A DNA stretch of 64,000 nucleotides from Nitrospirota bacterium (GCA_963699545.1 CAVOUE010000006.1:64001-128000), one strand, 5' to 3'. Shown: positions 3,206 to 42,121, counted from the first letter of the stretch. Numbers and translations are program-made. The notes: generated by a model from the sequence alone, not told the origin.

Positions 3206-4228
3206 TTACCTTTCACTGAATCTGTGCACAGCCTCCACCAGCGCCACGGCATTTTCCACAGGACTTTCGGGCAATATCCCATGTCCGAGGTTAAAGACAT
3301 GCCCCTTTGCGAATTCCCCCTTCCAGAGGATATCCTTCACCTTGTCCTCCATCTTTTCCCTTGGGAGGAAAAGAGCACAGGGGTCGAGGTTCCCCTGAAC
3401 GGCGAACTTCTTTCCGATCCCCTTAACAGCGTCCTTCAGGTCTACCCTCCAGTCGATCCCTATGACGTCAGCAGAGGTCTTCCTGATCTCTTTCAGGAGC
3501 GCAGCGCACTCGTTCACGAAATAGATCACCGGGACCCCTTCCTTTTTCAATTCGGCAATGGCTTTCTTCACATGAGGGAGGACAAACTCTTTGTAGTCCC
3601 CCGGCGCAAGAGTTCCTGCCCATGTGTCGAAGAGCTGCACTGCCTGGGCCCCCGCCCTGACCTGCGACGTCAGATAGGAAATGACCGTTATGGTAATCTT
3701 GTCCATGAGGAGGCTGAAAAGCCCCGGGTTCTGGAACATCATTCTCTTGGTGTTCAGGAAGTTTTTCGAGCTTCCCCCTTCTATCATGTATGTGGCGAGG
3801 GTAAAGGGCGCTCCCGAAAACCCAATGAGAGGAACAGTGAGTTGAGACCTGAGGATCCTTATCGCCTCTAGTACAAAGGGCATGCTGTCTTCCGTGTCAG
3901 GGATGACCAGCCGGTCAACGCCGGATTTTGTTCTCACCGGGTCACCCAGCACCGGCCCTTTCTTGTCCGAAAATTCCAGGTGCATCCCCATGGCTTCCAC
4001 GGCGATGAGGATGTCCGAAAAGAGGATCGCCGCATCGACCTTGAGCTTCTCCACAGGCTGCATTGTGACCTTCGCCGCCAGCTCAGGGGTTTTGCACAGG
4101 GTGAGAAAATCCACCTCGGCGCGCACAGCCTGGTATTCCGGGAGATACCTTCCTGCCTGACGCATGATCCATACCGGGGTGTACGGCACCTTTTCACCCC
4201 TGCACGCCTTAAGAAATATGTCGTTCAT
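3206..4228 (-). CDS. hemE: Uroporphyrinogen decarboxylase
   Basis: PVWIMRQAGRYLPEY, AILFSDIL, FNLGHGI motifs. Confidence 0.98.
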   Translation of the reverse strand: MNDIFLKACRGEKVPYTPVWIMRQAGRYLPEYQAVRAEVDFLTLCKTPELAAKVTMQPVEKLKVDAAILFSDILIAVEAMGMHLEFSDKKGPVLGDPVRTKSGVDRLVIPDTEDSMPFVLEAIRILRSQLTVPLIGFSGAPFTLATYMIEGGSSKNFLNTKRMMFQNPGLFSLLMDKITITVISYLTSQVRAGAQAVQLFDTWAGTLAPGDYKEFVLPHVKKAIAELKKEGVPVIYFVNECAALLKEIRKTSADVIGIDWRVDLKDAVKGIGKKFAVQGNLDPCALFLPREKMEDKVKDILWKGEFAKGHVFNLGHGILPESPVENAVALVEAVHRFSER

Positions 4229-7884: not shown

Positions 7885-8271
7885 ATGAAACGCTCGAAAA
7901 AGATCGCCCTGACATTACTTGCATCTGCTTCTCTGGCCGCCTGCGGCTGCGGTTCAGAACAGGCCACACAGAGGGAGATCTACGCTTCCAGGGAAAAATG
8001 TGTGGAGGACTGGGGCGGCGACGACAAATGCGAAGAAGGCCAGGGAGGCAGATATTATTACGGACCGCATTATATCTTCCGCAGCGGATATCCCTATTAC
8101 TTCCGTTCGGGGAGCAGGGACCCGCTCCCCCTCGGCAGGGATGCAAGATTCTCGGGCGTACAGCCGGGGATGAAATCACCTCACTCGGCAGACACCCTTT
8201 CTACAACCCGTATCAGCCGCGGAGGATTCGGAAGGTCTGCATCATTGCATGGTGGAGGCTCAAAATCATGA
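7885..8271 (+). CDS. DUF1190/YgiB-like lipoprotein
   Basis: MKRSK signal with LAAC lipobox, YxSxxxC motif, C-terminal SRGGFG; precedes a GSP-synthase-family gene. Confidence 0.75.
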   Translation: MKRSKKIALTLLASASLAACGCGSEQATQREIYASREKCVEDWGGDDKCEEGQGGRYYYGPHYIFRSGYPYYFRSGSRDPLPLGRDARFSGVQPGMKSPHSADTLSTTRISRGGFGRSASLHGGGSKS

Positions 8272-8290
8272 CCCTAAAGGCATTTTCCCG

Positions 8291-9427
8291 GTGAAACGGC
8301 TGACAGTGAACCCGCGTTCCCGCTGGCAGGAAAAATTCGAGGAATTCGGCTTCTCTTTCCACTCCATGGATGGATTGTACTGGAATGAGGGCATCTGCTA
8401 TGAGTTTTCCTCTGAAGAGATCGATCACCTCGAAAAAGTGACCGCCACCCTTCATGAGATGTGCGCCGAAGCGGTGGGTCATGTGGTTGAGAATGATCTT
8501 TTCCCGAAGATGGGTATTCCCGACACCTTCGGGGAGTTTGTCAGAAGGTCCTGGGAAAGGGATGACCGTTCCCTTTACGGTCGTTTCGATCTTTCGTACG
8601 ACGGACAGGCCGAACCGAAACTTCTGGAATACAACGCGGACACCCCCACTTCGCTTTTTGAGTCAAGCATCGCTCAGTGGATATGGATAGAGGAGATGTT
8701 CCCCCACGAGGACCAGTTCAACTCCATCCACGAGAAGCTTCTCGATGCCTTTTCACAGGTGCGCGGAGACATTCCCCTTTCCACACCGTTTTATTTTTCC
8801 TGCGTGAAGTACCATGAGGAAGACTTCCTCACCACGGAGTATATGCGTGACATTGCGCTCCAAGCCGGTCTGGATGCACGGCACATCTTTGTTGAAGACA
8901 TCGGCTATAGCGACGAAACACAGGCGTTCTACGACCTCGGCAATAATGAGATCGAATTCATCTTTAAACTCTACCCGTGGGAATGGGTCATGGCTGACGA
9001 ATTCGGCAAACACGTCCTGCAAGACGGGTTAAGGATGTATGAGCCCCCGTGGAAAATGGTGTTGTCGAACAAGGCTATTCTCCCGATCCTTTGGGGGATG
9101 TTTGAAGGCCACCCAAACCTGCTGCCGAGCTATTTTGAGCCGGAGAAATGCGGAAACTCATACGTGAAGAAGCCTCTCCTTTCGAGAGAAGGCGCAAATA
9201 TCGCGTATTATCAGGGTGGTCGCTGCCTGGAAGATACGGAAGGAAGTTACGGCGCTGAAGGATTCATCTACCAGAAAGCACAGCAGCTTCCCTGCTTTGA
9301 GGGAAATTACGCGGTCGTGGGCTCATGGGTAATAAACGGACTGGCTGCAGGGATCGGTATCCGTGAAGATACCTCTCCCGTCACGAAGAACACAAGCACG
9401 TTTGTGCCACATTACTTTAAACAGTAA
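8291..9427 (+). CDS. Glutathionylspermidine synthase family ATP-grasp protein (YgiC/YjfC-like)
   Basis: LYGRFD, KLLEYNADTPTSL, FKLYPWE, EPPWK, SREGAN, GIRED, FVPH. GTG at 8291 preferred (8249 overlaps the upstream gene). Confidence 0.93.
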   Translation: MKRLTVNPRSRWQEKFEEFGFSFHSMDGLYWNEGICYEFSSEEIDHLEKVTATLHEMCAEAVGHVVENDLFPKMGIPDTFGEFVRRSWERDDRSLYGRFDLSYDGQAEPKLLEYNADTPTSLFESSIAQWIWIEEMFPHEDQFNSIHEKLLDAFSQVRGDIPLSTPFYFSCVKYHEEDFLTTEYMRDIALQAGLDARHIFVEDIGYSDETQAFYDLGNNEIEFIFKLYPWEWVMADEFGKHVLQDGLRMYEPPWKMVLSNKAILPILWGMFEGHPNLLPSYFEPEKCGNSYVKKPLLSREGANIAYYQGGRCLEDTEGSYGAEGFIYQKAQQLPCFEGNYAVVGSWVINGLAAGIGIREDTSPVTKNTSTFVPHYFKQ

Positions 9428-9456: not shown

Positions 9457-9874
9457 ATGATCGGAGAAAAGTTCATTACGCCTTTTTCAGGTCTTCTTGG
9501 TTTTGGAGTCTATTTCGTCATGGCGATTCTCCTCCTCGTTCTTTTTTCATTGATCTATGCGAGGACCACGCCCTATAAAGAGTTTGCGCTCATCTCCAAA
9601 GGAAACCTCGCCGCTGCCTGGAGTTTCAGCGGAGCATTGCTCGGGTTTGCAATCCCTCTTGCCAGCGCCATTTCCCATAGCGTCGGGCTCATTGACATGG
9701 TGATATGGGGAACCATCGCCCTCATCGTGCAGCTGCTCACCTTTTCGGCGGTAAGGAAACTCTTCCCCGCCATTGTCTCTGATATCCCGGAGAACCACGT
9801 TGCGCAGGGAGTGTTCCTCGGCGTTGTCTCCCCTTGTGAGCGGGATACTGAACGCCGCGTGTATGACGTACTGA
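9457..9874 (+). CDS. DUF350 (YjfL-like) membrane protein, +1 error near 9830
   Basis: TPYKEFALISKGNLAAA; removing one C from GTCTCCCCTT restores VSLVSGILNAACMTY* ending at 9874. Confidence 0.88.
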
Positions 9875-10044
9875 GCCTGTACTATTCTGGTCCTGCCGCC
9901 TGGCGACACGCAGCGACCGGGGGGATGCCTATTTCAAAGAGCGGCACTCAAGCCGTCCCCGAATAACCATCTACAAAACAAGACTTCTTTACGGACCGGA
10001 AGGCCCATGATCACTTCCCCGGATACCGCCCCCTCAAGAAAAAG

Positions 10045-10104
10045 TTGACATCTATCCCCTTCATCAGTATAATCAGAACAATCAGCATGGTAAGTATTCC
10101 TAAG
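10045..10104 (+). promoter_or_regulatory. Perfect sigma70 promoter of the hgc operon with overlapping tandem repeats (candidate operator)
   Basis: TTGACA 10045-10050, 17-nt spacer, TATAAT 10068-10073; ATCAG at 10063, 10072, 10081, then GTAAG 10090 and CTAAG 10100. Confidence 0.85.
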
Positions 10105-10123
10105 ACATCCGGGGAGAGGTGAC

Positions 10124-10399
10124 ATGAGAAAAAGGAAAGAAGCTTTGCCTTGCACTCTATCAGCGAATAAGACCAATGCCAGTTGCAAAGTTGAATCCAT
10201 AATAAGCGTCGACGAAAGGGGACAGATGGTACTGCCCAAGGAGCTGAGGGCAAAGGCAAAGATTAATGCCGGCGACAAATTGGCGATTACAAGCTGGGAG
10301 AAGGACGGGGAGGTCTGCTGCATAACCCTCATCAAGGTGGAAGATCTTGTGGAGATGGTAAAAGGGCAACTCGGCCCGATAATCAAAGAGATCCTGTAA
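10124..10399 (+). CDS. hgcC: HgcAB-associated AbrB/MazE-type DNA-binding protein
   Basis: CKVESIISVDERGQMVLPKELR...AGDKL swapped-hairpin signature plus VCC; immediately upstream of hgcA. Confidence 0.85.
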   Translation: MRKRKEALPCTLSANKTNASCKVESIISVDERGQMVLPKELRAKAKINAGDKLAITSWEKDGEVCCITLIKVEDLVEMVKGQLGPIIKEIL

Positions 10400-10441
10400 A
10401 ACTCTTGAAGTATGATCGAACTGAAATTCAGAAATATAGGC

Positions 10442-11611
10442 ATGAAAGACGATAAGAAGGGATCCGTATCTGTGCCCCGATGCGGCTGTGCAAGTTACGC
10501 TGGCAATGTGGATCACAAACCTGTGGCGGAATCTTGTTGCCCCGGAACCCGGGGGAAAGCGCCGGGATGGGTGACCGGAACTGTTGCGTCCCCAATCGGC
10601 TTGATCTTCCGGGTGTCGCCCGAACTTTCAAGAGCGGATATTTGGGAGCACGTCAAATGCAGAATAAGCGCATTCAGGAACGGTTATACGGTTGACCCCG
10701 GCCTGTACGCCGTGGGCGATCCGGATAAAGACTCTGATGTCCTTGCAAGTGCAAACTATAAGTTCAGTTTTGATATGCTCAGGAGCGAACTGAAAGGGCT
10801 TAATGTCTGGCTCCTTGTTCTGGATACGAAAGGTATCAATGTATGGTGTGCCGCAGGGAAGAGTACCTTTGGCAGCGATGAGCTGGCGAAACGCATTTCC
10901 ATGACCCAGTTAGATAAAGTAGTCGCGCACAAAAGGGTTATCGTTCCCCAGCTTGGTGCGCCAGGGGTTAGTGCACATCGGGTAAAACAGGCTACCGGGT
11001 TCAAGGTCTTTTTCGGACCGGTATATGCTCAAGATATCTCCGCGTATGTCAGGGGAGGATATAAAGCAACGAGAGAGATGCGAAGAGTGAAGTTCAGCTT
11101 TTCTGACAGGCTTGTTCTCACTCCCATGGAAATCAATCCTGCGATGAAGAAATACTATCCCTTATATGCTCTCCTCATACTATGCATTTTTGGGCTTTCC
11201 CCATCGGGTATCTCGTTCAGAGACGCATTCACCGGCGGCCTGCCCTTTCTCCTTCTCGGCCTTGTATCAGTGCTTTCCGGGGCATTGTTCACCCCTCTGC
11301 TTCTCCCTTTCGTTCCTTTCAGGTCTTTTGCCGTCAAGGGGTGGATTGTCGGAATGCTTTCTGTCTTTCTTTCGCTTACACTGATCTCTCCCCTCAATCC
11401 GTCGAATACGACACTTCTCATTTTCACCTATCTGTTCTTCCCTCTGTTAAGTTCCTATGTTGCGCTTCAGTTCACCGGGTCAACTACGTTTACGGGGATG
11501 TCGGGGGTGAAGAAGGAACTGAGGATCGCTATCCCTGCTTACCTTTTTTCGGGTGGAGTTTCCCTGGTCCTGCTGTCAATATTCACACTTGCCCGGTGGG
11601 GGCTCTTATGA
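10442..11611 (+). CDS. hgcA: Mercury methylation corrinoid protein (start 10412 or 10442)
   Basis: Cap-helix motif GINVWCAAGK, PGLYAVG, PQLGAPGV, C-terminal TM helices, FTGSTTFTGMSGVKKE. Confidence 0.98.
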   Translation: MKDDKKGSVSVPRCGCASYAGNVDHKPVAESCCPGTRGKAPGWVTGTVASPIGLIFRVSPELSRADIWEHVKCRISAFRNGYTVDPGLYAVGDPDKDSDVLASANYKFSFDMLRSELKGLNVWLLVLDTKGINVWCAAGKSTFGSDELAKRISMTQLDKVVAHKRVIVPQLGAPGVSAHRVKQATGFKVFFGPVYAQDISAYVRGGYKATREMRRVKFSFSDRLVLTPMEINPAMKKYYPLYALLILCIFGLSPSGISFRDAFTGGLPFLLLGLVSVLSGALFTPLLLPFVPFRSFAVKGWIVGMLSVFLSLTLISPLNPSNTTLLIFTYLFFPLLSSYVALQFTGSTTFTGMSGVKKELRIAIPAYLFSGGVSLVLLSIFTLARWGLL

Positions 11612-11904
11612 AATACCTGCTGGGCGTTGCAAGCCTCGAACTTTTCCCAGATAAGTGCACAGGCTGCGGGATGTGCGTCGAAGTGTGCCCCCATGAAGTG
11701 TTCACACTGACGGACAGGACAGTGGCAATCCTGGACAAGGACAGGTGCATGGAGTGCGGAGCCTGCGTGAATAACTGTGCCTTTGGCGCGTTGAGTGTCA
11801 ATAGAGGGGTTGGATGCGCTGCAGCTCTCATCAACAGCATGATCACCGGCGGTGAGCCTTCCTGCGACTGCAGCGAAAAAGGGGAAACGAGTGATTGCTG
11901 CTGA
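11608..11904 (+). CDS. hgcB: Mercury methylation 2[4Fe-4S] ferredoxin
   Basis: ATGA overlap with hgcA stop; CTGCGMCVEVCP and CMECGACVNNC; GVGCAAA; C-terminal CDC...SDCC. Confidence 0.97.
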   Translation: MKYLLGVASLELFPDKCTGCGMCVEVCPHEVFTLTDRTVAILDKDRCMECGACVNNCAFGALSVNRGVGCAAALINSMITGGEPSCDCSEKGETSDCC

Positions 11905-11936
11905 TCTCGTCAAAAAGGAAAGTAAGGAGGAGAAAA

Positions 11937-12188
11937 ATGGATAATCGCACAAAAGAATTGATAGCGGTGGGAGCATCGGTGACCGCAAACTGTCAGCCAT
12001 GTTTGCAATACCACGTGAGCAAAGCTCTTGAAAGCGGAGCAAATGAAGAGGAAATCAGGGAAGCCGTTTCGGTGGCAAAGATGGTGCGAAAGGGTGCGAT
12101 GGCGAAAATGGACCAGTTTGCTTCAGGTGTATTCAATACCGCAGAAGCAGCAGTACGCCCTTCGAGAGAGGGGTGTGGGTGCAGCTGA
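11937..12188 (+). CDS. Carboxymuconolactone decarboxylase / AhpD-like CxxC protein
   Basis: AAGGAGG RBS; KELIAVGASVTANCQPCLQYH...GANEEEIREA; tail GCGCS. Confidence 0.85.
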   Translation: MDNRTKELIAVGASVTANCQPCLQYHVSKALESGANEEEIREAVSVAKMVRKGAMAKMDQFASGVFNTAEAAVRPSREGCGCS

Positions 12189-12198
12189 CACGACTTGC

Positions 12199-13289
12199 CT
12201 ACGACCGGCTCCGGGAGGTTGAATAGCGAGGCGCAAGGATGGCGAGGATCTGTTCCTGCACTTCTTCCGGCGTCATGATGGCGCCGCCGGGCCTGCCATA
12301 GAAATGGACCTTTGATTTTCCGCTGATCGAGAGTCTCACATCCTCCACCATCTGTCCTGCGTTCAGTTCGATGGTGAGGAATTCCCTCCCCTTTCCGGCG
12401 AGAGCGTGAAGTTCCTTTTCAGGGAAGGGGAAAAGGGTAACGGGCCTGAAGAGCCCCACTCTGAAGCCGTCATGCCTCAGTTTCCTCACCGCGGAATGAG
12501 CGATCCTTGCAGTGATGCCGAAGGCGACGACGATGAGTTCTGCATCATCGGTATAGAAGGTGTCATAACGCACTTCCGTCTCTTTCATCCTCCGGTACTT
12601 CTCCTGCAGGAGATTGTTCCTCATCTCCAGTTCTCCTTCGCCCATATAGAGGGACTTCAGAACATTGGGCTCTCTTCCCCTGCATCCCGTAAGGGCCCAG
12701 GTCTTTTCAGGAAGCCCGGGGTCCACATAGGGAGTCGGGAAAAAGGCTCCATCATCTGCCCGAGTATTCCGTCGGCAAGGATCATTGCAGGGTTCCGGTA
12801 TTCGTCGGACTTGTCAAAGGCGAGCATGGTCGCATCCCAGAGTTCCTGGAGATTGTACGGCGCATAAACGAGGAGCTTGTAGTCACCGTGTCCCCCTCCC
12901 TTCACCGCCTGAAAATAGTCCGCCTGACTGCCTGATATATTCCCAAGACCGGGACCGCCCCGCTGCATGTTCACGATCACTGCGGGAAGTTCCGACCCCA
13001 CCAGGAACGAGATGCCTTCCTGCTTCAGACTTACCCCCGGACTACTGGAGGAGGTCATGGCCCTCGTCCCGCACGCCGAAGCGCCGTACACCATGTTAAT
13101 GGCAGCCAGTTCGCTCTCGGCCTGGATGAATATCCCGTCCACTTCGGGCATCCTCCTGGACATGTACTCAGGGATCTCGTTCTGGGGAGTAATGGGATAC
13201 CCTGCATAAAAACGGCATCCGGCCTGAACAGCAGCCTCTGCTATCACCTCGTTGCCCTTCATGAACAATTTCTCCTGCATGGGTTGCAT
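12199..13289 (-). CDS. vorB: 2-oxoacid:ferredoxin oxidoreductase alpha subunit (VorB-like), frameshift near 12730
   Basis: [30 protein letters not shown]-terminal [12 protein letters not shown] and ELNAGQM are in ORF 12199..12726. Confidence 0.88.
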
Positions 13290-13490: not shown

Positions 13491-14408
13491 ATGAATTTTC
13501 AGACCCTCATTTTACGACTCCAAGAATTCTGGGCAAAAAGGGACTGCGTGCTCCTTCAACCCTATGATATGGAAGTGGGAGCGGGGACTTTCCATCCTGC
13601 TACCTTCTTCAGGGTTCTCGGTCCTGAGCCGTGGAGGGTGGCGTATGTAGAACCTTCACGGAGACCCACGGACGGCAGGTATGGAGAGAACCCCAACCGG
13701 CTCCAGCATTATTACCAGTACCAGGTTATCCTGAAACCCTCTCCCCTTGAGAGCCAGCAGCTCTACCTCGACAGTCTCATCCATCTCGGCATCGACCCGT
13801 TGAAACACGACATACGGTTTGTGGAGGATGACTGGGAATCGCCCACCCTCGGAGCATGGGGCCTTGGGTGGGAGGTGTGGCTCGACGGCATGGAGATCAC
13901 CCAGTTCACGTATTTCCAGCAGGTGGGGGGCATTGACCTGAAACCGGTCGCTGTGGAGATCACCTACGGCCTCGAAAGGATCGCCATGTACCTGCAGGGA
14001 GTGGACAATGTTTACAACCTTGACTGGGGCAGCGGCGTCAGGTACGGAGATATCCACCACATTGAAGAAGTGGAATTCTCAAAGTACAATTTCGATTTTG
14101 CTGATACCGAGCTGCTCATGAAGGAGTTTGAGGCCTACGAAAAAGAATCAAGGAGACTGAACGGGCTCGGCCTTGTCACGCCCTCCTACGAGTTCTGCCT
14201 CAAATGTTCCCATACCTTCAACCTCCTGGATGCCAGGGGAGCTTTCTCTGTCACTGAGAGGACAGGGTACATCGCCCGCGTCCGGGGAATTGCAAAGCTT
14301 TGTGCAGAGGCGTTTCTGAAGCAGAGAGAAGAGCTGGGATTTCCGCTCTTGAAAGACAACGATATTACAGCGCCGGGGAAAGAACTGAAAAATGCAGCAG
14401 ACAAATAG
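13491..14408 (+). CDS. glyQ: Glycine--tRNA ligase alpha subunit
   Basis: [48 protein letters not shown]. Confidence 0.99.
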
Positions 14409-16502
14409 CTCAGCCGTTCCCCCACAGCCGGACCGTCTTTCATCCCTTCTGCTTGAAATGGGCACTGAGGAGGTTCCCGCCAGGTTCCTGCCCCCTGCCC
14501 TTGCCATGCTGAGGGACAATACCGAATCCATTTTCAACGACTCCCTTATCGGTTTTACAGACATTCAGACCTATGCTACCCCGAGGCGCCTCACGGTACT
14601 GGTGAAAGGCATCCCCCCCATGCAAAAAGACAGGGCAAAGGAGGTCTTCGGTCCTTCGAAAAAGGCGGCATTTGATGAATCAGGCAATCCCACAAGGGCC
14701 GCCGCCGGCTTTGCCCAGTCCCAGGGAGTGGAGGTCGCCGACCTTGTGATCAGGAATAAGGACAAAGGGGAATATGTGGTTGCGGTGATCAGGCAGGAAG
14801 GCATTGCGGTCAGAGACCTCCTTCCCGGAGTGCTTAGTAAGGTGGTGCTGTCTTTGAGCTTTCCGAAATCCATGAGGTGGGGCAGCGGCAGTCTGAGATT
14901 TGTAAGGCCCCTTCACTGGCTGCTGGCCCTCCTTGACGGGGAGACCGTCCCTTTCGATATCGACGGGATACGGAGCGGGAATATCACAAAGGGCCACCGT
15001 TTTCTTTCTCCGGGTTCCTTTGCCGTAAAGGAGATACCGTCTTACACCCACCTTCTCGAGAATAACTATGTGGTCGTGGACCAGGATGAGAGAAGGAGGA
15101 GGATCGATTCGGGCATCGCAGCCCTTGCCTCTTCGGTGGGGGGAAAGGTGACGAATGACCGGGAACTCCTTGAGACCGTCACCTATCTTGTGGAGTACCC
15201 GGTGCCGGTCCTGTGTGAATTCCCCGAGGACTATCTCCGTCTCCCCAGGGAACTTCTTGTGACCGTGATGAAGGGCCACCAGAAATACTTTGCGGTGGAG
15301 GGAGAAGACGGGAAGCTCAAGAACAGTTTCATCGTCATCAGCAATACAAAGGACGAGAACGCTGAGACCATCAGAACGGGTGCGGAACGGGTCATAAAGG
15401 CACGGTTCGAAGATGCACGGTTTTACTATGAGGACGATATCAGGAAGCCCCTGAAGGAAAGGATAGAGGACCTCAAGCGGGTGACCTTCCATGACAAACT
15501 GGGAACGCTCCATGACAAGACAGAGAGGATCGTTGCTCTGGCATCATACGTCGCCAGCAGACTTTGCCCTGATACAATGAACGTTATTGAGAGGGCTGCA
15601 CGTCTCAGCAAGACCGATCTCATCACCGGCGTCGTGGGTGAATTCCCGGAGCTGCAGGGCCTCATGGGCAGATACTATGCGCTGAATGACGGCGAAGGCA
15701 GCGAAGTGGCGGAGACGATCCTGCAGCAGTACCTGCCGGCCCATTCCGGCGACAGACTTCCGGAATCTGACGAAGGCGCCATTCTCAGCCTCTCGGACAA
15801 AGTGGACAACATCGTTTCATTCTTTGCCATCGGTTCTACGCCCACCGGCTCGGAAGACCCCTTTGCACTGAGGAGGCAGGCCCTGGCAGTAATCGCCATC
15901 CTCCTGGAAAAGGGCTATGACATTACATTGGAAGAGATGGTCAGGAAGGCTGAAGAGAAGGCATGCGGAGCCCGGCTCTCTCTCCTGACCGAGGTTCTTA
16001 CCTTCTTCAGCCAGAGAATGGAACCACTGCTTTCCTCCCAGGGCCACGCACCTGATATCATCCAGTCGGTCATCCGCTTCGTGAGGCGAGTGTTCCGCTG
16101 CGGGAGATCAGGGAGAGGATCGCTGCCATTAACGCGTTTCACCTCCGACACCGAGTACAATGCGTTCCTCCTTGCGATGAAACGCATAAACAATATCGTC
16201 CCCGATACGGAGTTACCGCAGGTATCAAAGGACCTCCTCAGGAAGTGGAAGAAAAGATCCTCTTTGCCGAGTTACTCTCCACGGCAAAGCCGGCCTTGCA
16301 CACACTGCTGCAGGAGGGAAATTACTACGAGGCACTTAAGGTGTCATCCACGCTGACCAAATTTATCAACAGTTTCTTTGACGGGGTCCTGGTGATGGAC
16401 AAGAGGGATGAGGTCAAGCTGAACAGGTTCGCCCTTCTCAGGGAAATCTGGACCATGACCTCTCCCATTGCGGACTTCTCCAAACTTAAGGAGACCAGGT
16501 AA
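14392..16502 (+). CDS. glyS: Glycine--tRNA ligase beta subunit, with frameshift error(s) in the 3' part
   Basis: [41 protein letters not shown]-terminus FFDGVLVMD...NRFALL...ADFSKL in ORF 16245..16502. Confidence 0.96.
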
Positions 16503-19999: not shown

Positions 20000-20050
20000 C
20001 TATTTGTTCAGAACCTTTGCGGCATCCTTTGCAAAATAGGTAAGTATGAG
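20000..20050 (-). repeat. Displaced duplicate of the hemB 3' end (attR-like)
   Basis: Encodes [16 protein letters not shown]; 45/51 nt identical to 22598..22648, all 6 differences synonymous. Confidence 0.95.
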
Positions 20051-20087
20051 AAAAATAGTATTTTGTTCCTTTATTTTTCCTTCGTCA

Positions 20088-21155
20088 TTATGTCGCCATT
20101 ACACTAACTGGTAGGATGTTGTAGCCATAATTATAGCTCTTATCATAGACATAAGTATTGCCGTCTATCATAGAAATTATGTATGCACTTGCATCACCAG
20201 TGGATGTCCAGTAATAGGCAGGTGCAACATTTCTAAAGCCGATGATTTTCAACAAAGAAGATATATCCTTCTCGTACCCTGTCTGACTCTTGGCAAAGTC
20301 AATAATAGTTTTCAATTCATCCAGAGAAGGAAGCCTCCAGTCGCTCCGTCCTGCATACAGGTCGCTATTCATGTTTGACAAGTATTCAAGAACAACACTC
20401 CATCTCATGCCTCCGCCCATATTTGCCTGCTTTGGCCATATTAGTCCTGTTTTTTTGTCTTGGATTATCAAATCCGAAAACAAAAACCTCATCTCAACTG
20501 CTTGTTTGATAGCTTGTTTCCCTTGCTCCTGTGCTTGCTTGATGGCTTGGTAACTTTTCTCTCGTTCTTCTGCCTCTGCTTGCACTCGCTTGATAGCCTG
20601 GTAACGTTTCTCGCGTTCTTCTGCTTCTGCTTGTGCTTGTTCGATCGTTCGGACACGTTTCTCTTGCTCGTTTGTTTCTGAGTTAGTCAATGTGTTTTTA
20701 CTGGACCACCGTTCAAAAAGAGTACCACCAATATTCGGAGAAAACTCTTTGATCGCATCGTCCATCTTCGTAATATATCTATTCAAAAGGCTGATAATAT
20801 TATTACCGTTAATTAATTCGATTGCTTTATTCTGGCTGAAAGAAATTGCTTGTTTGGTAAAATCAGAAGTTGTTATTAGGATTCCTTTATTGGCATTTTC
20901 GTGCATCATCGCACCGTACAACTCTCTCACTATGGGTTCGCCAACATTATTGCCAGGCGTGTATTTCTTGCACTGAATCACATAACGACCACCCACAATA
21001 GGTTGCTCACTCACTGCGATTATGTCTATACCACCATCACCCGAAATTTTGGTAGTGGAAGCATTGAATTGCATTTTTGTCAGTAAAGTTCTTATTAGTT
21101 CCTCGAACTCACGCGGAGCCAATTTTAAAAGGCTGTCGATTTCAAAAAGTTCCAT
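20088..21155 (-). CDS. Mrr-like PD-(D/E)xK endonuclease fused to a coiled-coil repeat and a DUF1566 (Lcl C-terminal) domain
   Basis: PREFEELI...SGDGGIDI...IQCKKY...VRELYG...ITTSDFT; QAEAEEREKxYQAIK x2; DKKTGLIW...GRSDWRLPSLDEL...YYWTST. Confidence 0.85.
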   Translation of the reverse strand: MELFEIDSLLKLAPREFEELIRTLLTKMQFNASTTKISGDGGIDIIAVSEQPIVGGRYVIQCKKYTPGNNVGEPIVRELYGAMMHENANKGILITTSDFTKQAISFSQNKAIELINGNNIISLLNRYITKMDDAIKEFSPNIGGTLFERWSSKNTLTNSETNEQEKRVRTIEQAQAEAEEREKRYQAIKRVQAEAEEREKSYQAIKQAQEQGKQAIKQAVEMRFLFSDLIIQDKKTGLIWPKQANMGGGMRWSVVLEYLSNMNSDLYAGRSDWRLPSLDELKTIIDFAKSQTGYEKDISSLLKIIGFRNVAPAYYWTSTGDASAYIISMIDGNTYVYDKSYNYGYNILPVSVMAT

Positions 21156-21249
21156 TTAGCACCATAATTCTGCATCTTGTTCATCTTATGTAGAATTATA
21201 CCCAGAGAATATAGTTGCAGGCAAGATCTATCTTTCTATGAAACTGCTC

Positions 21250-21278
21250 TTGACATTAAGGATGCCGGTCTTTAAAAT
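21250..21278 (+). promoter_or_regulatory. sigma70 promoter for the island cyclase-like gene
   Basis: TTGACA-17 nt-TAAAAT; GGGAGG RBS at 21315-21320. Confidence 0.75.
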
Positions 21279-21328
21279 CCGTTGAGATATGACTTGCCTT
21301 ACCTATTTTGAGAAGGGAGGATGTTTTT

Positions 21329-22201
21329 ATGGCGGACAACACGCTATTTTCATTATACCTTGTAATTTTTCTTGATCTCCTCGGTCAGCAAGATGCAATT
21401 AAAAGGATAGGAGATGATTTCCCTGCAAGTGATGAAAGTAGGGAGAAGTTTGCGATACCTGTCAGAGAGAGTCTGGGAAAGGTTCTTGACATCCGTAAGA
21501 CGTTTGAAGAATATTTCCACGCCTCGGCAAAATATATTCCAAATAATACTGAGAGTGTACCGCCTATGTACCGTGATGAGTACGTTTCTTGTTTCCAATC
21601 TGAGATAGATTTTTATTGCGTATCGGATTCAATAATTGTTTCATTACCGTTAACAAATGAAAATGAAAATGCGAAAGCTGTTAAAGGGCTATCGTCAGCT
21701 CTTGTGGCTACTGGCGCAATAGGGTTGGCGGCGCTTGCAAAGGGAATTGCCATTCGTGGAGGAATAGACGTTGGAATAGCCGCAAAGATTGATGATCGGG
21801 AAATATACGGGCCTGCATTACAGAAAGCTATTTATTTAGAAAGCGAGCTTGCGGAGTATCCACGTTTTCTTGTAGGCAATGGATTAGTAGGCTATTTGAG
21901 ATGGGTGGGAAAAAAGCAATTTCAGACTCCTTTTGGTGAGATCGCAAGAATCATGGCGCGACACTGTAGTGAAATGATTTTTCAGGATACAGATGGACGA
22001 GTTTGTCTGGATTTCCTTGGTACTAAATTTAAGGAAATCAGCGATAAAACCTTGACAATCGAGCTAATTAAGGAAGCGTGGAAGTTTGTGTCTTCTGAAT
22101 ACGAGAGATTTGCTAAGGAGGAAGATGTCAAATTGACATCTCGCTATTTTAGATTGATGTATTACTTCGTCTCTCGCAAGGGCATATGGGGAATCAATTG
22201 A
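21329..22201 (+). CDS. Hypothetical protein with class III nucleotidyl-cyclase-like motif pattern
   Basis: VIFLDLLG...CVSDSIIVS...IRGGIDVG...IYGPALQKAIYLES...EYPRF; fold call from motif spacing only. Confidence 0.55.
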   Translation: MADNTLFSLYLVIFLDLLGQQDAIKRIGDDFPASDESREKFAIPVRESLGKVLDIRKTFEEYFHASAKYIPNNTESVPPMYRDEYVSCFQSEIDFYCVSDSIIVSLPLTNENENAKAVKGLSSALVATGAIGLAALAKGIAIRGGIDVGIAAKIDDREIYGPALQKAIYLESELAEYPRFLVGNGLVGYLRWVGKKQFQTPFGEIARIMARHCSEMIFQDTDGRVCLDFLGTKFKEISDKTLTIELIKEAWKFVSSEYERFAKEEDVKLTSRYFRLMYYFVSRKGIWGIN

Positions 22202-22597: not shown

Positions 22598-23570
22598 CTA
22601 TTTGTTGAGGACTTTTGCAGCATCCTTTGCAAAATAGGTAAGAATAAGATCCGCCCCGGCCCGCTTTATGGAGGTGAGGATCTCCATCATCATTCTTTCC
22701 TCATCGATCCATCCGAGCCTGCCCGCTGCCTTCACAAGGGAATATTCCCCGCTCACGTTGTATGCAGCCACAGGGACATCGAAATTGTCCTTCACATCCG
22801 AAATGATGTCCAGGTAGGAGAGAGCAGGCTTCACCATCACAATGTCCGCCCCTTCCTCGATATCAAGGGCAACCTCTTTCAGCGCCTCGATCCTGTTTGA
22901 CGGGTCCATCTGGTAGGAACGCCTGTCCCCAAACCGTGGAGTAGACTCCGCGGCCTCCCTGAAAGGCCCGTAGAAGGCAGAAGCGTATTTTGCGGCATAG
23001 GACATGATCGGCACTTCAGGGAATCCCTCATCGTCCAGCGCAAGGCGGATCGTTTCAACCCTGCCGTCCATCATATCCGAGGGTGCCACCATATCAGCAC
23101 CAGCCCTTGCGTGGGAAAGGGCTTCCTTTGCCAGAAGTTCGAGAGTGGGATCATTGGCCACATCCCCCCCCTCTATGATCCCGCAATGACCATGGCTCGT
23201 ATATTCGCACATGCAGACGTCCGTGATCACATACAACCCCGGCGCCGCATCTTTTATCGCCCTGATGGCTCTCTGCACGACTCCCCTGTCATCAAAGGCG
23301 CCGGACCCTTTTTCGTCCTTATGCTCGGGGATCCCGAAGAGTATCACCGAAGGAATGCCCAGGGAATGGACTTCCTTTGCGGTCCTGCCCACCTTGTCGA
23401 CGGACTCCTGGAAACACCCGGGCATTGCCAAGATCTCTTTCTTCACTCCCCTGCCATGGGTGACAAAGAGAGGATAGATGAAGTCATCAGGGCACAGCGT
23501 GGTTCTCCCTTACCATCCTCCTGATCGTCTCATTCTTCCTCAGCCTTCGGGGTCTATGAACGGGGAACAT
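22598..23570 (-). CDS. hemB: Porphobilinogen synthase, +1 error near 23505
   Basis: [11 protein letters not shown] from ATG 23570; [37 protein letters not shown]. Confidence 0.98.
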
Positions 23571-27293: not shown

Positions 27294-27962
27294 ATGATTA
27301 CTGCGGAAAGAAAACCTATTGCAGAAATTAAAGAAATGCTGGCGCCCTACAGGAAGATACTGGTAGTGGGCTGCGGGTCCTGCGTGGCTGAGTGTGCATC
27401 GGGAGGCGAAAAAGAGGTGGGACTTCTCTCTTCCGCACTCCGCATGGACGCGAAGGCATCCGGGAAAGAGATAGAACTGAAAGAGATGACGCTGGACCGC
27501 CAGTGCGTCTATGAGTTTATTGACCAGTTGACAGACGTGATCGGCCAGTACGACATTGTCCTCTCGCTCGCGTGCGGCGCAGGGGTACAGGCCGTTGCAG
27601 AGGTCTTCCCAAAGGTCCTTATTGTCCCTGCCCTCAATACAACGTTCCTCGGAGAGACAAAAGAGGCGGGTCTCTGGGTGGAGAACTGCCGTGGCTGCGG
27701 TGACTGCAAGCTCGGGGTTTTCGCTGCCGTATGCCCTGTCACCCGTTGCGCCAAAGGGCTGTTCAACGGCCCCTGCGGCGGCTCCAGGACTGACCGTTGC
27801 GAGGTCGATCCCGATGTGCCCTGCGCGTGGCAGCTCATTGTCTCCAGACTCGAAGATGTGGGTCGGCTTGACCTTCTGCGAAAGGTCCATCCCCCGGCGG
27901 ATTGGTCAAAGCAGCAGGGGAAGGGACCGAGGAAGATCAAGAGGGAGGACCAGAGAACGTGA
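27294..27962 (+). CDS. metV: Methylenetetrahydrofolate reductase Fe-S subunit
   Basis: MITAERKP, GCGSCVAEC, CRGCGDC, CPVTRCAKGLFNGPCGG, CAW. Confidence 0.93.
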   Translation: MITAERKPIAEIKEMLAPYRKILVVGCGSCVAECASGGEKEVGLLSSALRMDAKASGKEIELKEMTLDRQCVYEFIDQLTDVIGQYDIVLSLACGAGVQAVAEVFPKVLIVPALNTTFLGETKEAGLWVENCRGCGDCKLGVFAAVCPVTRCAKGLFNGPCGGSRTDRCEVDPDVPCAWQLIVSRLEDVGRLDLLRKVHPPADWSKQQGKGPRKIKREDQRT

Positions 27963-28882
27963 TGACCGAAAGCCGGCTCAAAAAGGTTTTACATAGTGGA
28001 GATTTCGCCGTTACCGCTGAATGCGGCCCACCAAAGGGAGCCGACCCCGAGGTCGTAAGAAACAAAGGAAAGCTCCTTAAGGGTTATGTGGACAGCGCGA
28101 ATGTTACTGACAACCAGACCGGTGTGGTCCGTCTTTGCAGTCTCGCTGCCTGTGCCTTGCTCAAGGCCGAGGGGCTTGACCCCGTCCTCCAGATGGTCAC
28201 CCGTGACCGTAACCGTATTGCTCTCCAGTCGGACGTCCTTGGGGCCTCTGCACTTGGCATACGTAACATCCTCTGTCTTTCCGGCGATCATCAGTCATTC
28301 GGCAACCAGCCCCAGGCAAAAGGCGTCTTTGACATCGACTCCGTTCAGTTGATACAGGCCGTGCGTCAGATGAGAGATGCCGGCGAGATCATCGGAGGCG
28401 AGAAGCTGACCGCGTCGCCTCAACTGTTTATCGGGGCCGTGGCAAACCCCTTTGCGGATCCTTTTAAGTACCGGGCTGCCCGTCTCGCTACGAAAGTGGA
28501 GGCAGGCGCGGAGTTCATACAGACCCAGTGCATTTTCAATCTCAAGCGCTTCAAAGAGTGGATGGACCTCGTAAAAGACTACGGGATGGATAACAAGGTC
28601 TCCATCCTCGGCGGGATCACGCCCCTTAAGTCTGTCCGCATGGCAGAGTACATGGCGAAGCAGGTGGCCGGCATGGATGTGCCCGAAGAGGTCATCAGCA
28701 GGATGAAAGCGGCGCCCGCAAAAGAACAGCGGCAGGAAGGGATCAAGATAGCCGTGGAAACGATCCAGGCCCTTCAGGAGATGAAGGGTGTTCACGGGGT
28801 CCATATCATGGCGATCGAATGGGAAGATGTCGTTCCACAAATAGTTCAGGAGGCGAAACTTTTCCCGAGGCCCCAGGTTTGA
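27962..28882 (+). CDS. metF: Methylenetetrahydrofolate reductase, FAD subunit
   Basis: VTAECGPPKG, NVTDN, RDRNRIALQSD, GAEFIQTQ, GVHIMA; stop/start overlap with metV. Confidence 0.95.
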   Translation: MTESRLKKVLHSGDFAVTAECGPPKGADPEVVRNKGKLLKGYVDSANVTDNQTGVVRLCSLAACALLKAEGLDPVLQMVTRDRNRIALQSDVLGASALGIRNILCLSGDHQSFGNQPQAKGVFDIDSVQLIQAVRQMRDAGEIIGGEKLTASPQLFIGAVANPFADPFKYRAARLATKVEAGAEFIQTQCIFNLKRFKEWMDLVKDYGMDNKVSILGGITPLKSVRMAEYMAKQVAGMDVPEEVISRMKAAPAKEQRQEGIKIAVETIQALQEMKGVHGVHIMAIEWEDVVPQIVQEAKLFPRPQV

Positions 28883-28897: not shown

Positions 28898-30282
28898 ATG
28901 CCCCCTAAATATCATATTCATACCAGCCAGGCAGCAAACCGGCTTCAGTCGATCACCCGGTCGGGAGTCATTGCATGGGAAGAAGGGTGCCTCAAATGCG
29001 CCCGCTGCGTGAAGAAGGATTGCGTCTACAAGGTATATGAAAAGCGGGGTATTGACGCCGGCCAGATGCTCGAATCCCTCGACAGCGTCTGCAAGGACTG
29101 CTTCCGCTGCGTCCAGGGCTGTCCGAACAAGCTTATCCAGAAGGGGCTCAATCCCTCATATAAAGACCTCGGAGATCATTACTGGACGCCGGAGATCATT
29201 TCGGCGCTCTGGTTTCAGGCAGAAGCGGGACGCATCCCTGTTTCCGGCGCCGGTTACGGGGGACCTTTCTCCGGGCCCGGTTTTGACGCCATGTGGACAG
29301 ACATGTCCGAAATAGTCCGGCCTACAAGGGATGGTATCCACGGCCGCGAATACATAAGCACCGTGACCGATATCGGCCGCAAGGTGATGGCCCTCGAATT
29401 CGATCATTCGGGCGCACTTTCGATAACTCCGCCGCCCCTTGTGGAGATACCGCTGCCGATTATTTTCGACATACTGCCCTGGTCGCCGCCTCGGAAAGGG
29501 ATCAATCTCGCCCTTCTCGAAGGAGCACGGTCGCTGGGCACCTTTGCGGTTATCCGGCAGAGCGAGTTCGATCCGGCGATGGAGGAGTATCTCCCCAGCA
29601 TGGTCCTTTACGCTGACGGGAGGTTATCCGATATCGAGTCCGGCGGTCCTGCGCACGTTGCGCCTGATAGAGATACCGTACGGGGAAGAAGTCATCGCCG
29701 CACAGAACGCCCTGAAAGAAAAGTACCCCGGCCTCGTGACAATTATCCGGATGGAACTCGGTCCTGACTCATCGGAGAATGTCTTCCGGCTCACCACAGA
29801 AGGGGCCGAGGCCATACATCTTGTTGCCGACGAATACGGCCTTGAAAAGGCCGATAAGCCTCTCTTCATAAAAGAACGGGTGAAGGAGATCCACCTTCAC
29901 CTCGTGGAGAAGGGAGTGCGGGACCAGATCACCCTTATCGCAGGCGGGGGCATCGCGATGGCGGAACATGTGGCAAAGCAGATCATCTGCGGTGCCGACC
30001 TCTTGTCCGTTGACATACCGCTCCTCGTTGCCATGGAGTGCAGGGTGTGCCGCCGCTGCAAGGAGGGCATTGCCTGTCCCGTGGGGCTTGACAGTGTTGA
30101 CCCCGTCTGGGGCTGCCGGCCGCATAAGGAACCTCATGGCAGGCTGGCATAACCAGCTTCTGGAGATCCTGGGCGCCATGGGTATCCGTGAGGTGAGAAG
30201 ACTGCGGGGCGAAATGGGCCGGGCCATGTTCTTCGAAGATCTTGAAAAAAATATTTTCGCCACTCTGGGCAAAAGAAGTTGA
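28898..30282 (+). CDS. Ferredoxin plus degenerate glutamate-synthase FMN-barrel protein (frameshifts near 29635 and 30115)
   Basis: CLKCARC and CKDCFRCVQGCP; RDQITLIAGGGI, CRVCRRC, GAMGIREVRRLRGE spread over three ORFs. Confidence 0.8.
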
Positions 30283-30286
30283 GGGA

Positions 30287-31809
30287 ATGGGAAACAAACC
30301 AGAGACATTCACGCTCCCTGAGATCAAACCGCTGCCAAGCCGTTTCCGCAACGCCCTCGGAAAGTATCGTGTTACGGTAACCAAGGCGTGCAACAACTGC
30401 GGACTCTGCGTAACGCTCTGTCCCTATGGTGTGTATAAGACCGGCTCAAAAAAACCAAGGGTGGCAGCCGAGCATCTCTGCCTCGGCTTCCCGTGCAGCG
30501 CAAATGATTTCTACTGCGTACGCAGATGCCCTGAAAAGGCGATCCAGTTAAGTCTGAACCCGTCTTTTGAAATCCTGGGAGACAGACGGTGGCCGGCGGA
30601 ACTTCTTGCCAGCACCTGGCATATGGCGGAGACCGGTGAGATTCCGTACCAGGGACTGAACTACAAGACCGGCGATTCCGGAGGCGGCTTCGATAAGCTC
30701 CGTTTTATCTTTCCAAGGGGAAAAGGGTTGGCTATCCCCGATGAAGAGGTATCCACAGCCATTGAACTGAACCGCTCCGGAGATTCGCGGCCGGGCATCA
30801 CTATCCCGGTTCCTTTTTATCTTGGCGGCATGTCCTTCGGCTCTGTCAGTATCGTGACGATGCTCTCCCGCGTCAGGGCCGCCACGGCCCTTAATACCTT
30901 CTGCTGTACCGGTGAAGGCGGCTACCCGGAGGAACTGATTCCTTACGATGATCACGTCATCACCCAGGTGGCAACAGGCCTCTTCGGGGTGCAGAGAAGA
31001 GACGATCAAGAGGGTCCGCATCGTGGAGTTCAAGTATGCCCAGGGGGCAAAACCCGGTCTTGGCGGACATCTCCTCGGTGACAAGGTGACACCCCGTGTG
31101 GCCAGTATGCGTGAGGCGGTGGCGGGAAGCGCTCTCTTCTCACCGTTTCCGTTCCACAGCGTCTATTCGGTCGAAGACCACAAGAAACATGTGGACTGGA
31201 TAAAGGAGACGAACCCCCGTGCCCTCGTGTCGGTAAAGGTCTCAACACCGACTGATGTGGACATGGTTGCCGTGGGGAGTTACTACGCCGGGGCCCATAT
31301 CGTTCAGCTTGACGGAAGTTACGGCGGGACCGGTGCGGCGCCGGATATTGCAAAAAAGAATATTGCCATGCCGATCGAATATGCCCTGCCCAAGGTGCAC
31401 AAGTTCCTTAGCGAAGAGGGTATCAGGGACAAGATCACCATTATCGCGAGCGGCGGGATACGGTCAGCCCACGACATGGCGAAGGCCATTGCCCTTGGCG
31501 CCGACGGGGTCTGTCTCGGCACCGCCGACCTCGTGGCCCTTGAGTGCATCCGCTGCCACCACTGTGAGTCAGGTCGTGGCTGTGCCCGGGGTATCGCCAC
31601 AACGGACGAAGAACTTACGAATCTGATGGAGCTCGAATGGGCGACCCAGCGTATCATCAACATGTATCTGACCTGGCGGCGCCAGCTTGTCTCTCTCCTC
31701 AAGCGGCTGGGTATGAAGAGCGTTACAGAGCTTGTGGGACGCTTCGATGTGATCGGCCACCTCGATTACCTTAAGCAGGAAGAGACTGGAAGGGGAACTG
31801 GATATATGA
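30287..31809 (+). CDS. Ferredoxin plus glutamate-synthase FMN-binding (GltB2-like) subunit (frameshifts near 30990 and 31780)
   Basis: CNNCGLCVTLCP, GGMSFGS, CTGEGG, QVATGLFG, KYAQGAKPGLGG, GGTGAA, SGGIR, CIRCHHC; predicted TGA 31807-31809 overlaps the next ATG. Confidence 0.85.
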
Positions 31810-34460: not shown

Positions 34461-34566
34461 AGAACCGCTTTCCCCGACTCTTCCGACGTTCGCAGATAAC
34501 TGCCCCCCTTTGCCCTGCGATTCGCCTGTAATGCACATCAGAGAGAATCCTCTCCTGACCAGCTCG

Positions 34567-34680
34567 TTGACAAAGATGGCCTCGGTTTTATTATAATTAA
34601 ACATAGTTTCGCAATTGAATCGGCTAAGGGTTATTGTTCCGGCGTCTCGTACCAGAAGCAGGGTCGAGACGCTCTTTTTT
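34567..34680 (+). promoter_or_regulatory. Promoter plus leader terminator of the second glutamate synthase operon
   Basis: TTGACA 34567, TATTATAAT 34589-34597; stem GCGTCTCG 34642-34649 / CGAGACGC 34665-34672, then TCTTTTTT; ATG at 34709. Confidence 0.65.
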
Positions 34681-34708
34681 CAGAAACATAACGATGAGGT
34701 AATCGGCT

Positions 34709-42043: not shown

Positions 42044-42121
<78 letters not shown>

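Follow-up and report, generated by a model that had tools for sequence, protein, structure and literature searches.

An HgcC-type mercury-methylation locus of a Nitrospirota-like genome, with a candidate HgcC operator over its promoter and a fourth gene predicted to lie outside the conserved system

How the expression of hgcAB is controlled has yet to be settled in mercury biogeochemistry, since the abundance of these mercury-methylation genes poorly predicts methylmercury production. A DNA stretch of 64,000 nucleotides from a Nitrospirota bacterium (GCA_963699545.1 CAVOUE010000006.1:64001-128000, analyzed over its whole length and hereafter called the window) raises this question in a specific form: do the two small genes flanking hgcAB at 10045..12188 belong to the methylation system, and what might they contribute? 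The original prediction for this region described a self-contained four-gene operon on one strand, consisting of hgcC, hgcA, hgcB, and an AhpD-like gene of the CMD family, behind one promoter. The promoter and all four genes are present there on one strand, and the locus is intact, representing an ordinary HgcC-type mercury-methylation locus of a Nitrospirota-like genome. Taken as a whole, we consider it rather probable that HgcC acts as an autorepressor of this locus and that the fourth gene, probably co-transcribed, stands outside the conserved system and serves the thiol-based handling of metal(loid)s.

The two methylation genes were assigned with the NCBIfam models. HgcA reached 387.6 bits with NF040863 (cut-off 275) and stayed below the cut-offs of the paralog models, i.e., those of the HgcAB-like fusion (190.5 < 285) and of CdhE, the gamma subunit of acetyl-CoA synthase (66.6 < 306); by profile score, with trees built without paralog outgroups, it is not a CdhE paralog. 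The predicted cap helix NVWCAAGK was confirmed at residues 143-150 in the corrinoid-binding domain. The motif occurs in 80 of the 81 HgcA compared, that of the window included (79 NVWCAAGK, one NVWCSAGK), the single HgcA without it being truncated by a contig end, and the nearest solved homologs of HgcA, the CFeSP large subunits, have no cysteine at the position of the cobalt-ligating cap-helix cysteine. A C-terminal multi-helix membrane domain is likewise present, with some five hydrophobic stretches in the region of residues 249 to 399 (approximately 249-269, 272-303, 306-330, 334-354, and 370-399), as calculated by the crude measure of Kyte-Doolittle hydropathy in a 19-residue window. HgcB passed NF040864 with 119.9 bits (cut-off 99). 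Its ferredoxin sequence contains two CX2CX2CX3C [4Fe-4S] motifs (C17/20/23/27 and C47/50/53/57), C70, C86/C88, and a C-terminal CC (C97-C98); the cysteines of the two motifs, C70, and the terminal CC are invariant or nearly so in an alignment of 44 sequences. The role of the HgcB cysteines has reportedly been addressed in work on strain ND132. Judged by these scores and alignments, hgcA and hgcB are genuine and intact. Since both equivalog models were passed and the paralog models failed, the genome is a predicted mercury methylator, and the corresponding claim of the original prediction is borne out at the level of the sequence. In line with established knowledge of HgcAB, Hg(II) would receive its methyl group from the corrinoid of HgcA, the cobalt of which would be re-reduced by HgcB.

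The start of hgcA was placed at 10412 because relatives conserve the N-terminus MxELKF. As a separate observation, the N-terminal extension of HgcA (about residues 1-65; 10412-10606) lies outside the HgcA model, whose match begins at residue 66, and carries cysteine clusters, CGC and CC in the window and CC and C-x-P in relatives. This extension might have a part in metal capture.

To place the locus among its relatives, an HgcA alignment scan of 185,579 species genomes was evaluated, in which at least 590 loci were confirmed out of 600 candidate stretches. All locus counts given here rest on the best 80 of these confirmed hgcA loci, with Nitrospirota ranking first (up to 70% identity), followed by Spirochaetota, Bacteroidota, Bacillota, and others. 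The gene next after hgcA is hgcB in 76 of the 80 loci, three of the four misses being located at contig ends. In the window, hgcB starts within the end of hgcA, the two genes sharing the 4 nt ATGA, and the same overlap was found in 40 of 76 related loci; as originally proposed, hgcA and hgcB are translationally coupled. A homolog of hgcC is positioned directly 5' of hgcA in 19 of the 80 loci (18 complete, one cut by a contig end). These loci cluster on the HgcA tree, with seven label changes compared with 18.1 in shuffles and none of 500 shuffles as low. On this tree, a quick maximum-likelihood tree with SH-aLRT support only, the HgcA of the window falls into a clade (support 98) with those of L001, L002, L018, and L003, all Nitrospirota, of which three carry hgcC and one does not. 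By this placement, the source is probably a Nitrospirota bacterium absent from the scanned collection. For the 61 loci without hgcC, annotation of the proximal upstream ORF of each (62 of 123 candidate ORFs) returned the Pfam families ArsR (16), MarR (4), LMWPc (4), DsbD-like (3), SBF (2), and ArsP (1). Thus, 16 of the 80 surveyed loci have ArsR directly 5' of hgcA, and 23 have an ars-type gene there if LMWPc, SBF, and ArsP are counted as well. Two of the surveyed loci, L033 and L036, have nearly identical hgcC-hgcA regions labelled "uncultured bacterium" and "Burkholderiaceae"; the latter label sits on a 1.6-kb contig and looks like a binning or contamination artefact.

The order hgcC-hgcA-hgcB is not new, since it is already covered by an NCBIfam HgcC model and by two publications. 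In the available parts of their text, McDaniel et al. 2020 (PMC7438021) report 112 genomes with a putative regulator immediately 5' of hgcAB, and Zhang et al. 2023 (PMC10349881) describe an AbrB/PrlF/MazE-like gene that directly precedes hgcA; it was seen in 14 contigs and, among 31 confirmed methylators, in 8, of which 6 are archaeal. The window shares with these loci the gene order on one strand and, by NF040962, the protein family, although the regulator of PMC7438021 is likened to HgcC by position as far as the accessible text goes, and its membership in the HgcC family may differ. The copy in the window is bacterial and Nitrospirota-like, and a fourth, AhpD-like gene is not described in the portions of either paper at hand. 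A different regulator occupies this position in Pseudodesulfovibrio mercurii ND132, where, according to the accessible part of Gionfriddo et al. (bioRxiv 10.1101/2022.10.17.512643), hgcAB is controlled by a co-transcribed ArsR; co-location of hgcAB with arsenic genes is mentioned there and in PMC7438021, in each case within the text available. Common to the ND132 locus, to the extent that it is described there, and the window are a small regulator gene 5' of hgcAB and the link of hgcAB to arsenic genes. In contrast, the window has no ArsR, and its regulator slot holds a SpoVT/AbrB-fold protein of an unrelated fold. The absence of an adjacent ArsR gene, as originally stated, was seen in a Pfam scan of the flanking genes (ArsR/SmtB, PF01022) and again when a profile of 16 ArsR genes from related loci was run against the six-frame ORFs of the whole window. 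HgcC would replace the ArsR of other hgc loci.

The first gene, originally noted as AbrB-type, was identified as the catalogued HgcC. It passed NF040962 ("HgcAB-associated protein HgcC") with 116.8 bits (cut-off 70), matched Pfam MazE_antitoxin/SpoVT-AbrB (PF04014) with 27.6 bits, and lies directly 5' of hgcA on the same strand. The nearest solved sequences are the N-domains of SpoVT and AbrB, aligned over residues 22-70. An AF2 model (pLDDT 77) showed a C-terminal helix at 72-90 and retrieved SpoVT, AbrB, Sso7c4, and MazE as best Foldseek matches (probability 1.0, best E-value 9e-3). Residues 22-70 thereby match this protein group in both fold and sequence, to which HgcC adds the C-terminal helix, a fixed genomic partner in hgcAB, and conserved cysteines. 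In 46 sequences, C21 and C66 never vary and at least 90% keep C65, whereas SpoVT has no cysteines where the aligned HgcC has CC; most HgcC members possess further N-terminal cysteines. These conserved cysteines are not described in the sections of PMC7438021 or PMC10349881 that were accessible. The product of hgcC is accordingly predicted to be a SpoVT/AbrB-fold DNA-binding protein.

The family comprises 2,937 clusters, some of them named "HgcAB-associated protein HgcC" by NCBI, and its labels elsewhere (Pfam MazE_antitoxin, JGI "antitoxin PrlF") could be taken to mean that hgcC encodes a MazE/PrlF-like antitoxin, orphaned by the decay of its type II toxin-antitoxin pair and unrelated to hgcAB. 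PMC10349881, in the part available, likewise treats the hgcC-like gene as toxin-antitoxin-associated. No toxin gene is adjacent, however; the only adjacent gene on the same strand is hgcA, 12 nt away, so that neither a MazEF nor a PrlF-YhaV arrangement is found. In addition, the protein passes a dedicated, hgcAB-tied equivalog model and keeps its place 5' of hgcA in 19 of the 80 loci, which makes an orphan antitoxin hardly credible.

The DNA upstream of hgcC provides the second line of evidence for a regulator. The sigma-70-type promoter matches the consensus exactly and in this form exists as a single copy in the window. Allowing up to one mismatch, the pattern occurs twice in the 64 kb (10045, exact; 21250, one mismatch) compared with 0.10 expected, and none of 100 shuffles gave two matches. 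The -10 box and the likely transcription start are covered by a row of ATCAG repeats. In an alignment of the upstream DNA of hgcC from the window and 18 loci, near-consensus -35 and -10 elements were found at the same place in all 18 related loci. The half-sites, ATCAG or ATCTG, follow each other at 9 nt in these promoters, in a row extending from the 5' edge of the -10 box past the likely start. Both promoter elements and the half-sites are conserved, unlike the stretch that separates the -35 from the first half-site. The strict motif ATCWG-N4-ATCWG was detected in 14 of 19 promoter zones of hgcC loci in comparison to one of 61 equivalent zones 5' of hgcA without hgcC, with a further 14 matches in the remaining 856,453 bp of the loci; within the window it matches at 10063 and 10072 only. 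Several members of the SpoVT/AbrB superfamily repress via repeated short sites over a promoter, and MraZ binds a row of direct repeats. The distribution of the ATCWG repeats is what one would expect if they were an operator for the protein encoded by the first gene, and HgcC would bind there. This motif is not described in the available text of PMC7438021 or PMC10349881.

The promoter repeats and the HgcC cysteines fit an autorepressor role of HgcC. In the mechanism we propose, HgcC would repress the very strong promoter of its own operon via the ATCWG half-sites, spaced by 9 nt over the -10 box and the start, while C21, C65, and C66 are candidates for sensing the signal, be it a thiophilic metal(loid) or the redox state, by which this repression would be lifted. 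The same cysteines, together with those at the N-terminus of most members, could alternatively mark HgcC as something other than, or more than, a transcription factor, namely a cysteine-based metal-binding accessory protein or chaperone of HgcAB made in step with HgcA. The very short distance from hgcC to hgcA, which is 12 nt in the window and ranges from -4 to 16 nt in most loci, would suit such a partner, and the NCBI name states only "HgcAB-associated". Nevertheless, short gaps are typical of autoregulators too, the fold and sequence match those of DNA-binding SpoVT/AbrB N-domains, and the repeat motif lies exactly over the promoters of hgcC loci; where hgcC is absent, a single locus in 61 has it. 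A complex prediction of HgcC against HgcA residues 1-232 and HgcB yielded a score of 0.00 compared with a mark of 0.32, run without controls, and speaks neither for nor against binding. The two roles are compatible with each other. We regard a chaperone function as decidedly unlikely and retain HgcC as the putative autorepressor. As to the original suggestion that the two small flanking genes add regulation and thiol-redox support, the conserved promoter repeats lend indirect support to the regulatory part for hgcC, whereas the thiol-redox part assigned to the fourth gene would follow from analogy only.

The AhpD-like CxxC gene announced downstream of hgcB is present, its product scoring 52.3 with Pfam CMD (PF02627; cut-off 23) and 47.7 with NCBIfam ahpD_dom (TIGR00778; cut-off 27.8) and bearing the motif C19-Q-P-C22. 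All four genes are encoded on the plus strand, with spacings of 12 nt between hgcC and hgcA, -4 nt between hgcA and hgcB, and 32 nt between hgcB and the fourth gene, and a convergent gene ends 10 nt past the latter. A simple consensus scan, which can miss promoters, recognised no promoter-like site in the interval that separates hgcB from the fourth gene. Of terminator-like sites, the plus strand of the unit has just one, located in hgcA and with a weak stem of 5 bp, and the number of such sites in the region (three compared with 3.5 expected) is at chance level. In an Rfam scan of the window, the hgc region gave no match to a riboswitch or to any other RNA family. Owing to the spacing, co-transcription of the fourth gene is likely, and in this genome the four genes probably form one transcript. 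One could instead regard the fourth gene as an unrelated neighbour with an unrecognised promoter of its own, brought behind hgcB by a chance local rearrangement. Its lack of recurrence and the high variability of the slot past hgcB, both detailed below, would be in line with this, as would its GC content at third codon positions (GC3), which at 0.488 is lower than in hgcB (0.657) and the neighbouring genes, a weak signal given the shortness of the gene. On the other hand, the gene sits 32 nt from hgcB with no promoter-like site recognised by the scan, and the convergent gene end boxes it in together with hgcB. We give an independent neighbour a small chance and proceed with a fourth gene that is probably co-transcribed.

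Co-transcription in one genome does not answer whether this gene is a regular part of the hgc system, which was addressed by searching the surveyed loci with a profile of 120 members of the fourth-protein family and with tblastn. No homolog was found next after hgcB in any of 76 loci, 72 of which extend at least 300 bp past hgcB. Within 6 kb, only one of the 80 loci (L025) harbors a homolog (9704-9952, 66% identity), located 2.3 kb past hgcB; in between lie an unassigned ORF on the minus strand, genes for an ECF sigma factor and VKOR, and an ORF of 91 aa. Independently, no CMD protein was recognised by Pfam among 114 ORFs 3' of hgcB in 73 loci. The slot after hgcB is instead highly variable, with SBF/Acr3-type (7), LMWPc (3), metallo-beta-lactamase (3), cation efflux (2), rubrerythrin (2), ArsP (1), ArsR (1), and thioredoxin (1) among its occupants; ars-type genes (the SBF/Acr3-type, LMWPc, ArsP, and ArsR genes just listed) account for 11 loci, one locus having two. 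Even the nearest relatives differ from the window and from each other, with LMWPc and SBF in L001, TetR and an outer-membrane efflux protein in L002, a LexA-like gene in L018, and ArsP in L003. As further, indirect and weak evidence, the longest contigs recorded for the top 120 matches of each protein are often of equal size for HgcA and HgcC, while CMD relatives have in common with them only the sizes 24,454 bp and 1,603 bp, the latter being too short for three genes. A plasmid search with the CMD protein returned 205 records, all of them ordinary Proteobacteria CMD genes below 60% identity and none a GCGC-tail relative, and no literature joining hgcAB with CMD or AhpD was found among the matches, which were covered in part. 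The cluster in L025 (8147-9952) is an observation of its own: ECF sigma factor, VKOR (a membrane thiol oxidoreductase), the 91-aa ORF, and the mini-AhpD-GCGC gene share a thiol-redox theme that is unrelated to adjacency to hgcB.

The original prediction had named a CMD gene not recurrent next to hgcB as a finding that would speak against it, and this is what the survey returned. By this comparison of neighbourhoods, the four-gene operon is not a conserved system, and the fourth gene, as far as the surveyed loci indicate, is a one-off addition outside the conserved hgc system; membership of such a system, as originally claimed, is not upheld. A dedicated function for HgcAB was nonetheless weighed, in which the AhpD-like CxxC protein of a true four-gene unit would, for example, keep the Hg-binding cysteines of HgcB or HgcA reduced or pass Hg(II) to them. 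Such a function would agree with the position on the same strand 32 nt past hgcB, the strong ribosome-binding site, the missing promoter- or terminator-like site in between, the conserved cysteine pairs in all four proteins, the family member 2.3 kb past hgcB in L025, and the fusion of the same domain type to another metal(loid) methyltransferase, ArsM. The family, however, is widespread (642 matches; 1,618 representatives), yet present within 6 kb in one of 80 loci only and adjacent to hgcB in none of 76, the four nearest relatives included. Moreover, the copy in L025 comes after the ECF sigma factor and VKOR gene and not after hgcB, and GC3 sets the window gene apart from hgcB, if weakly. 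A protein dedicated to HgcAB is therefore unlikely, and a broader metal(loid) thiol role remains our preferred reading of the fourth gene.

This preference is founded on the family itself. The fourth protein consists of E7, the motif C19-x-x-C22-x-x-x-H26, a variable linker, and a C-terminal GCGCS tail. Its AF2 model (pLDDT 88) combines a confident three-helix core with a disordered tail, and Foldseek listed RclX (7y4r), 3bey, and TM1620 as best matches. In 40 family sequences C19, C22, H26, and C80 are invariant, the family keeping AxCQPCLxYH and, after the variable linker, a C-terminal GCGC(S/G); 119 of 120 members have at least two cysteines in their last 12 residues. The 642 matches of the family are mostly 83-86 aa long and stem from several phyla of anaerobes, and a search of 1.84 billion representatives yielded 1,618 relatives. 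With the small hexameric proteins of the CMD/AhpD core (3bey, O27018; 1vke/1p8c, TM1620; 7y4r, RclX), the window protein has in common the helical core and a CxxC followed by His, in a Glu-Cys-Cys-His register which we take to be that of E118/C130/C133/H137 in AhpD of M. tuberculosis. It is shorter than these solved proteins, lacking their first 30-50 residues (the match begins with its residue 1 but at residue 34 of 96 or 53 of 133 in the solved proteins), and adds the linker and the conserved GCGC tail. From membership in the CMD/AhpD superfamily only, a peroxidase, disulfide-reductase, or decarboxylase activity may be named as a candidate. Two other assignments were ruled out, namely the GSU3128 family (NF041047, GSU3128_fam; 40.1 bits, cut-off 110) and a selenoprotein reading of the gene, the latter by the intact CxxC and the lack of an in-frame TGA.

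A fusion census covered 26 longer relatives, picked by length. Five of them are fused to ArsD, two to a SAM methyltransferase, one to a hydrolase, and one to GNAT, and several are tandem repeats. P0450 passes the arsenite methyltransferase model (330.5 bits, cut-off 263) and P0409 the ArsD model (107.9, cut-off 90), and both fusions carry cysteine pairs at the end. Compared with these ArsM-AhpD and AhpD-ArsD fusions (NF041537, ArsM_AhpD_UU; P0450, P0409), the window protein shows the same minimal AhpD domain with AxCQPCLxYH, linker, and terminal cysteine pairs, but it is free-standing and encoded after hgcB instead of being joined to ArsM, and the fusion model failed (47.7, cut-off 510). Viewed across the set, the minimal AhpD CxxC domain occurs at the C-terminus of ArsM and at the N-terminus of the As(III) chaperone ArsD (P0450, P0420, P0409, P0430, P0461, P0414, P0478), some of the fusion proteins being fragments or possibly mis-joined gene calls. 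The fusions to ArsM and ArsD tie this module to the handling of thiophilic metalloids, and it is because of them that a metal(loid) thiol job appears most likely for the fourth protein, over a dedicated HgcAB function. Such thiol-based handling of a thiophilic metal(loid) would consist of binding and hand-off, or of the re-reduction of partner cysteines. Since hgcAB and arsenic genes are known to be co-located, the position of the gene behind hgcB is better accounted for in that setting than by a new hgc component. A more specific scheme, to be held tentatively at best, would combine HgcC as a thiol-based sensor-repressor acting on the ATCWG row with the minimal AhpD-CxxC-GCGC protein as a general thiol partner of metal(loid) methyltransferases, joined to ArsM in some organisms and free-standing behind hgcB here.

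Several points weigh against the interpretation preferred here. Concerning HgcC, the Foldseek E-values are weak, and residues 1-16 are absent from the model. The strict operator motif is missing in five of the 19 hgcC loci, of which one is a contig end without promoter sequence and four have degenerate copies only, and the operator signal could in part reflect shared ancestry of related promoters. As to the fourth gene, its tight spacing, the strong ribosome-binding site, and the analogy of the ArsM-AhpD fusion are equally compatible with a working link to HgcAB. The survey is also biased, in that its 80 loci are all bacterial and weighted toward relatives of the query. The closest relatives, metagenome contigs with HgcA 72-80% identical, are outside it, and a link between hgcB and CMD specific to this clade is therefore possible. 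In this respect, the HgcA relative P0173 and the CMD relative P0031, whose longest contigs both measure 24,454 bp, may lie on one contig. Finally, SBF and LMWPc are Pfam family labels and no proof of Acr3 or ArsC function.

The coordinates of the features are compiled in Table 1.

Table 1. Elements of the hgc locus, with positions counted from the first nucleotide of the window.
Feature	Position	Strand	Basis or remark
Sigma-70-type promoter TTGACA-17 nt-TATAAT	10045..10073	+	12/12 consensus positions matched; -35 TTGACA 10045-10050, -10 TATAAT 10068-10073
Operator-like repeats ATCAG at 10063, 10072, 10081 (9-nt period)	10063..10085	+	conserved in hgcC promoters
Ribosome-binding site of hgcC, GGGGAGAGG	10111..10119	+	sequence reading; 4 nt before ATG at 10124
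hgcC, 91 aa	10124..10399	+	NF040962, Pfam PF04014
hgcA, 399 aa	10412..11611	+	NF040863
hgcB, 98 aa	11608..11904	+	NF040864
Ribosome-binding site of the fourth gene, AAGGAGG	11924..11930	+	sequence reading; 6 nt before ATG at 11937
Minimal AhpD/CMD-domain gene, 83 aa	11937..12188	+	Pfam CMD, NCBIfam ahpD_dom

In the surroundings of the locus, a gene of the glutathionylspermidine-synthase family (8249-9427) and a DUF350 membrane-protein gene (9457-9966) immediately precede the hgc promoter and share its orientation. The ORF of the DUF350 gene extends about 40 residues past the C-terminal end of its domain, possibly by another frameshift. The window contains a number of split genes in the form of overlapping or adjacent ORFs in different frames (12199-13289, minus strand; 14392-16499, 30242-37464, and 43100-46718, plus strand). 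Among them are a KorA-like alpha subunit of 2-oxoacid:ferredoxin oxidoreductase (POR_N 12657-13289, PFOR_II 12199-12726), glyS, whose true C-terminus is read in a different frame (16056-16499), fragments resembling glutamate synthase, and an AsmA/YhdP-like pair. These split genes suggest assembly indel errors or pseudogenes; despite them, hgcC, hgcA, hgcB, and the fourth gene are full-length in comparison to their families. A low-GC island (20001-22201; GC 0.403 compared with a window mean of 0.526) comprises a restriction endonuclease of the Mrr type joined to an Lcl C-terminal domain (20088-21155, minus strand) and a 297-aa ORF without Pfam match (21308-22201, plus strand), the latter 3' of the only other near-consensus promoter of the window (21250-21278). 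The Rfam scan of the window identified solely five tRNA genes (42044-42885, plus strand). Genes for the tetrapyrrole-precursor enzymes uroporphyrinogen decarboxylase and ALA dehydratase and for methylene-tetrahydrofolate reductase (3206-4228, 22598-23446, and 27294-28882) bear on the supply of corrinoid and methyl groups and are not adjacent to hgcAB.

The fourth gene defines no new hgc component, and the fusions of its family to ArsM and ArsD contribute a further strand to the connection, already known, of hgcAB with arsenic genes. Of the new leads from this locus, the candidate HgcC operator and the HgcC cysteines are the most useful. To our knowledge, the control of hgcAB tested so far is solely of the ArsR type, in one Desulfovibrio-like strain. 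The window offers a clean example of a second regulator type, HgcC, in which the promoter is defined and both an operator and sensing residues can be proposed as candidates. If the proposed role of HgcC is true, hgcAB of Nitrospirota and of other HgcC-type methylators would be an inducible system with a definable signal.

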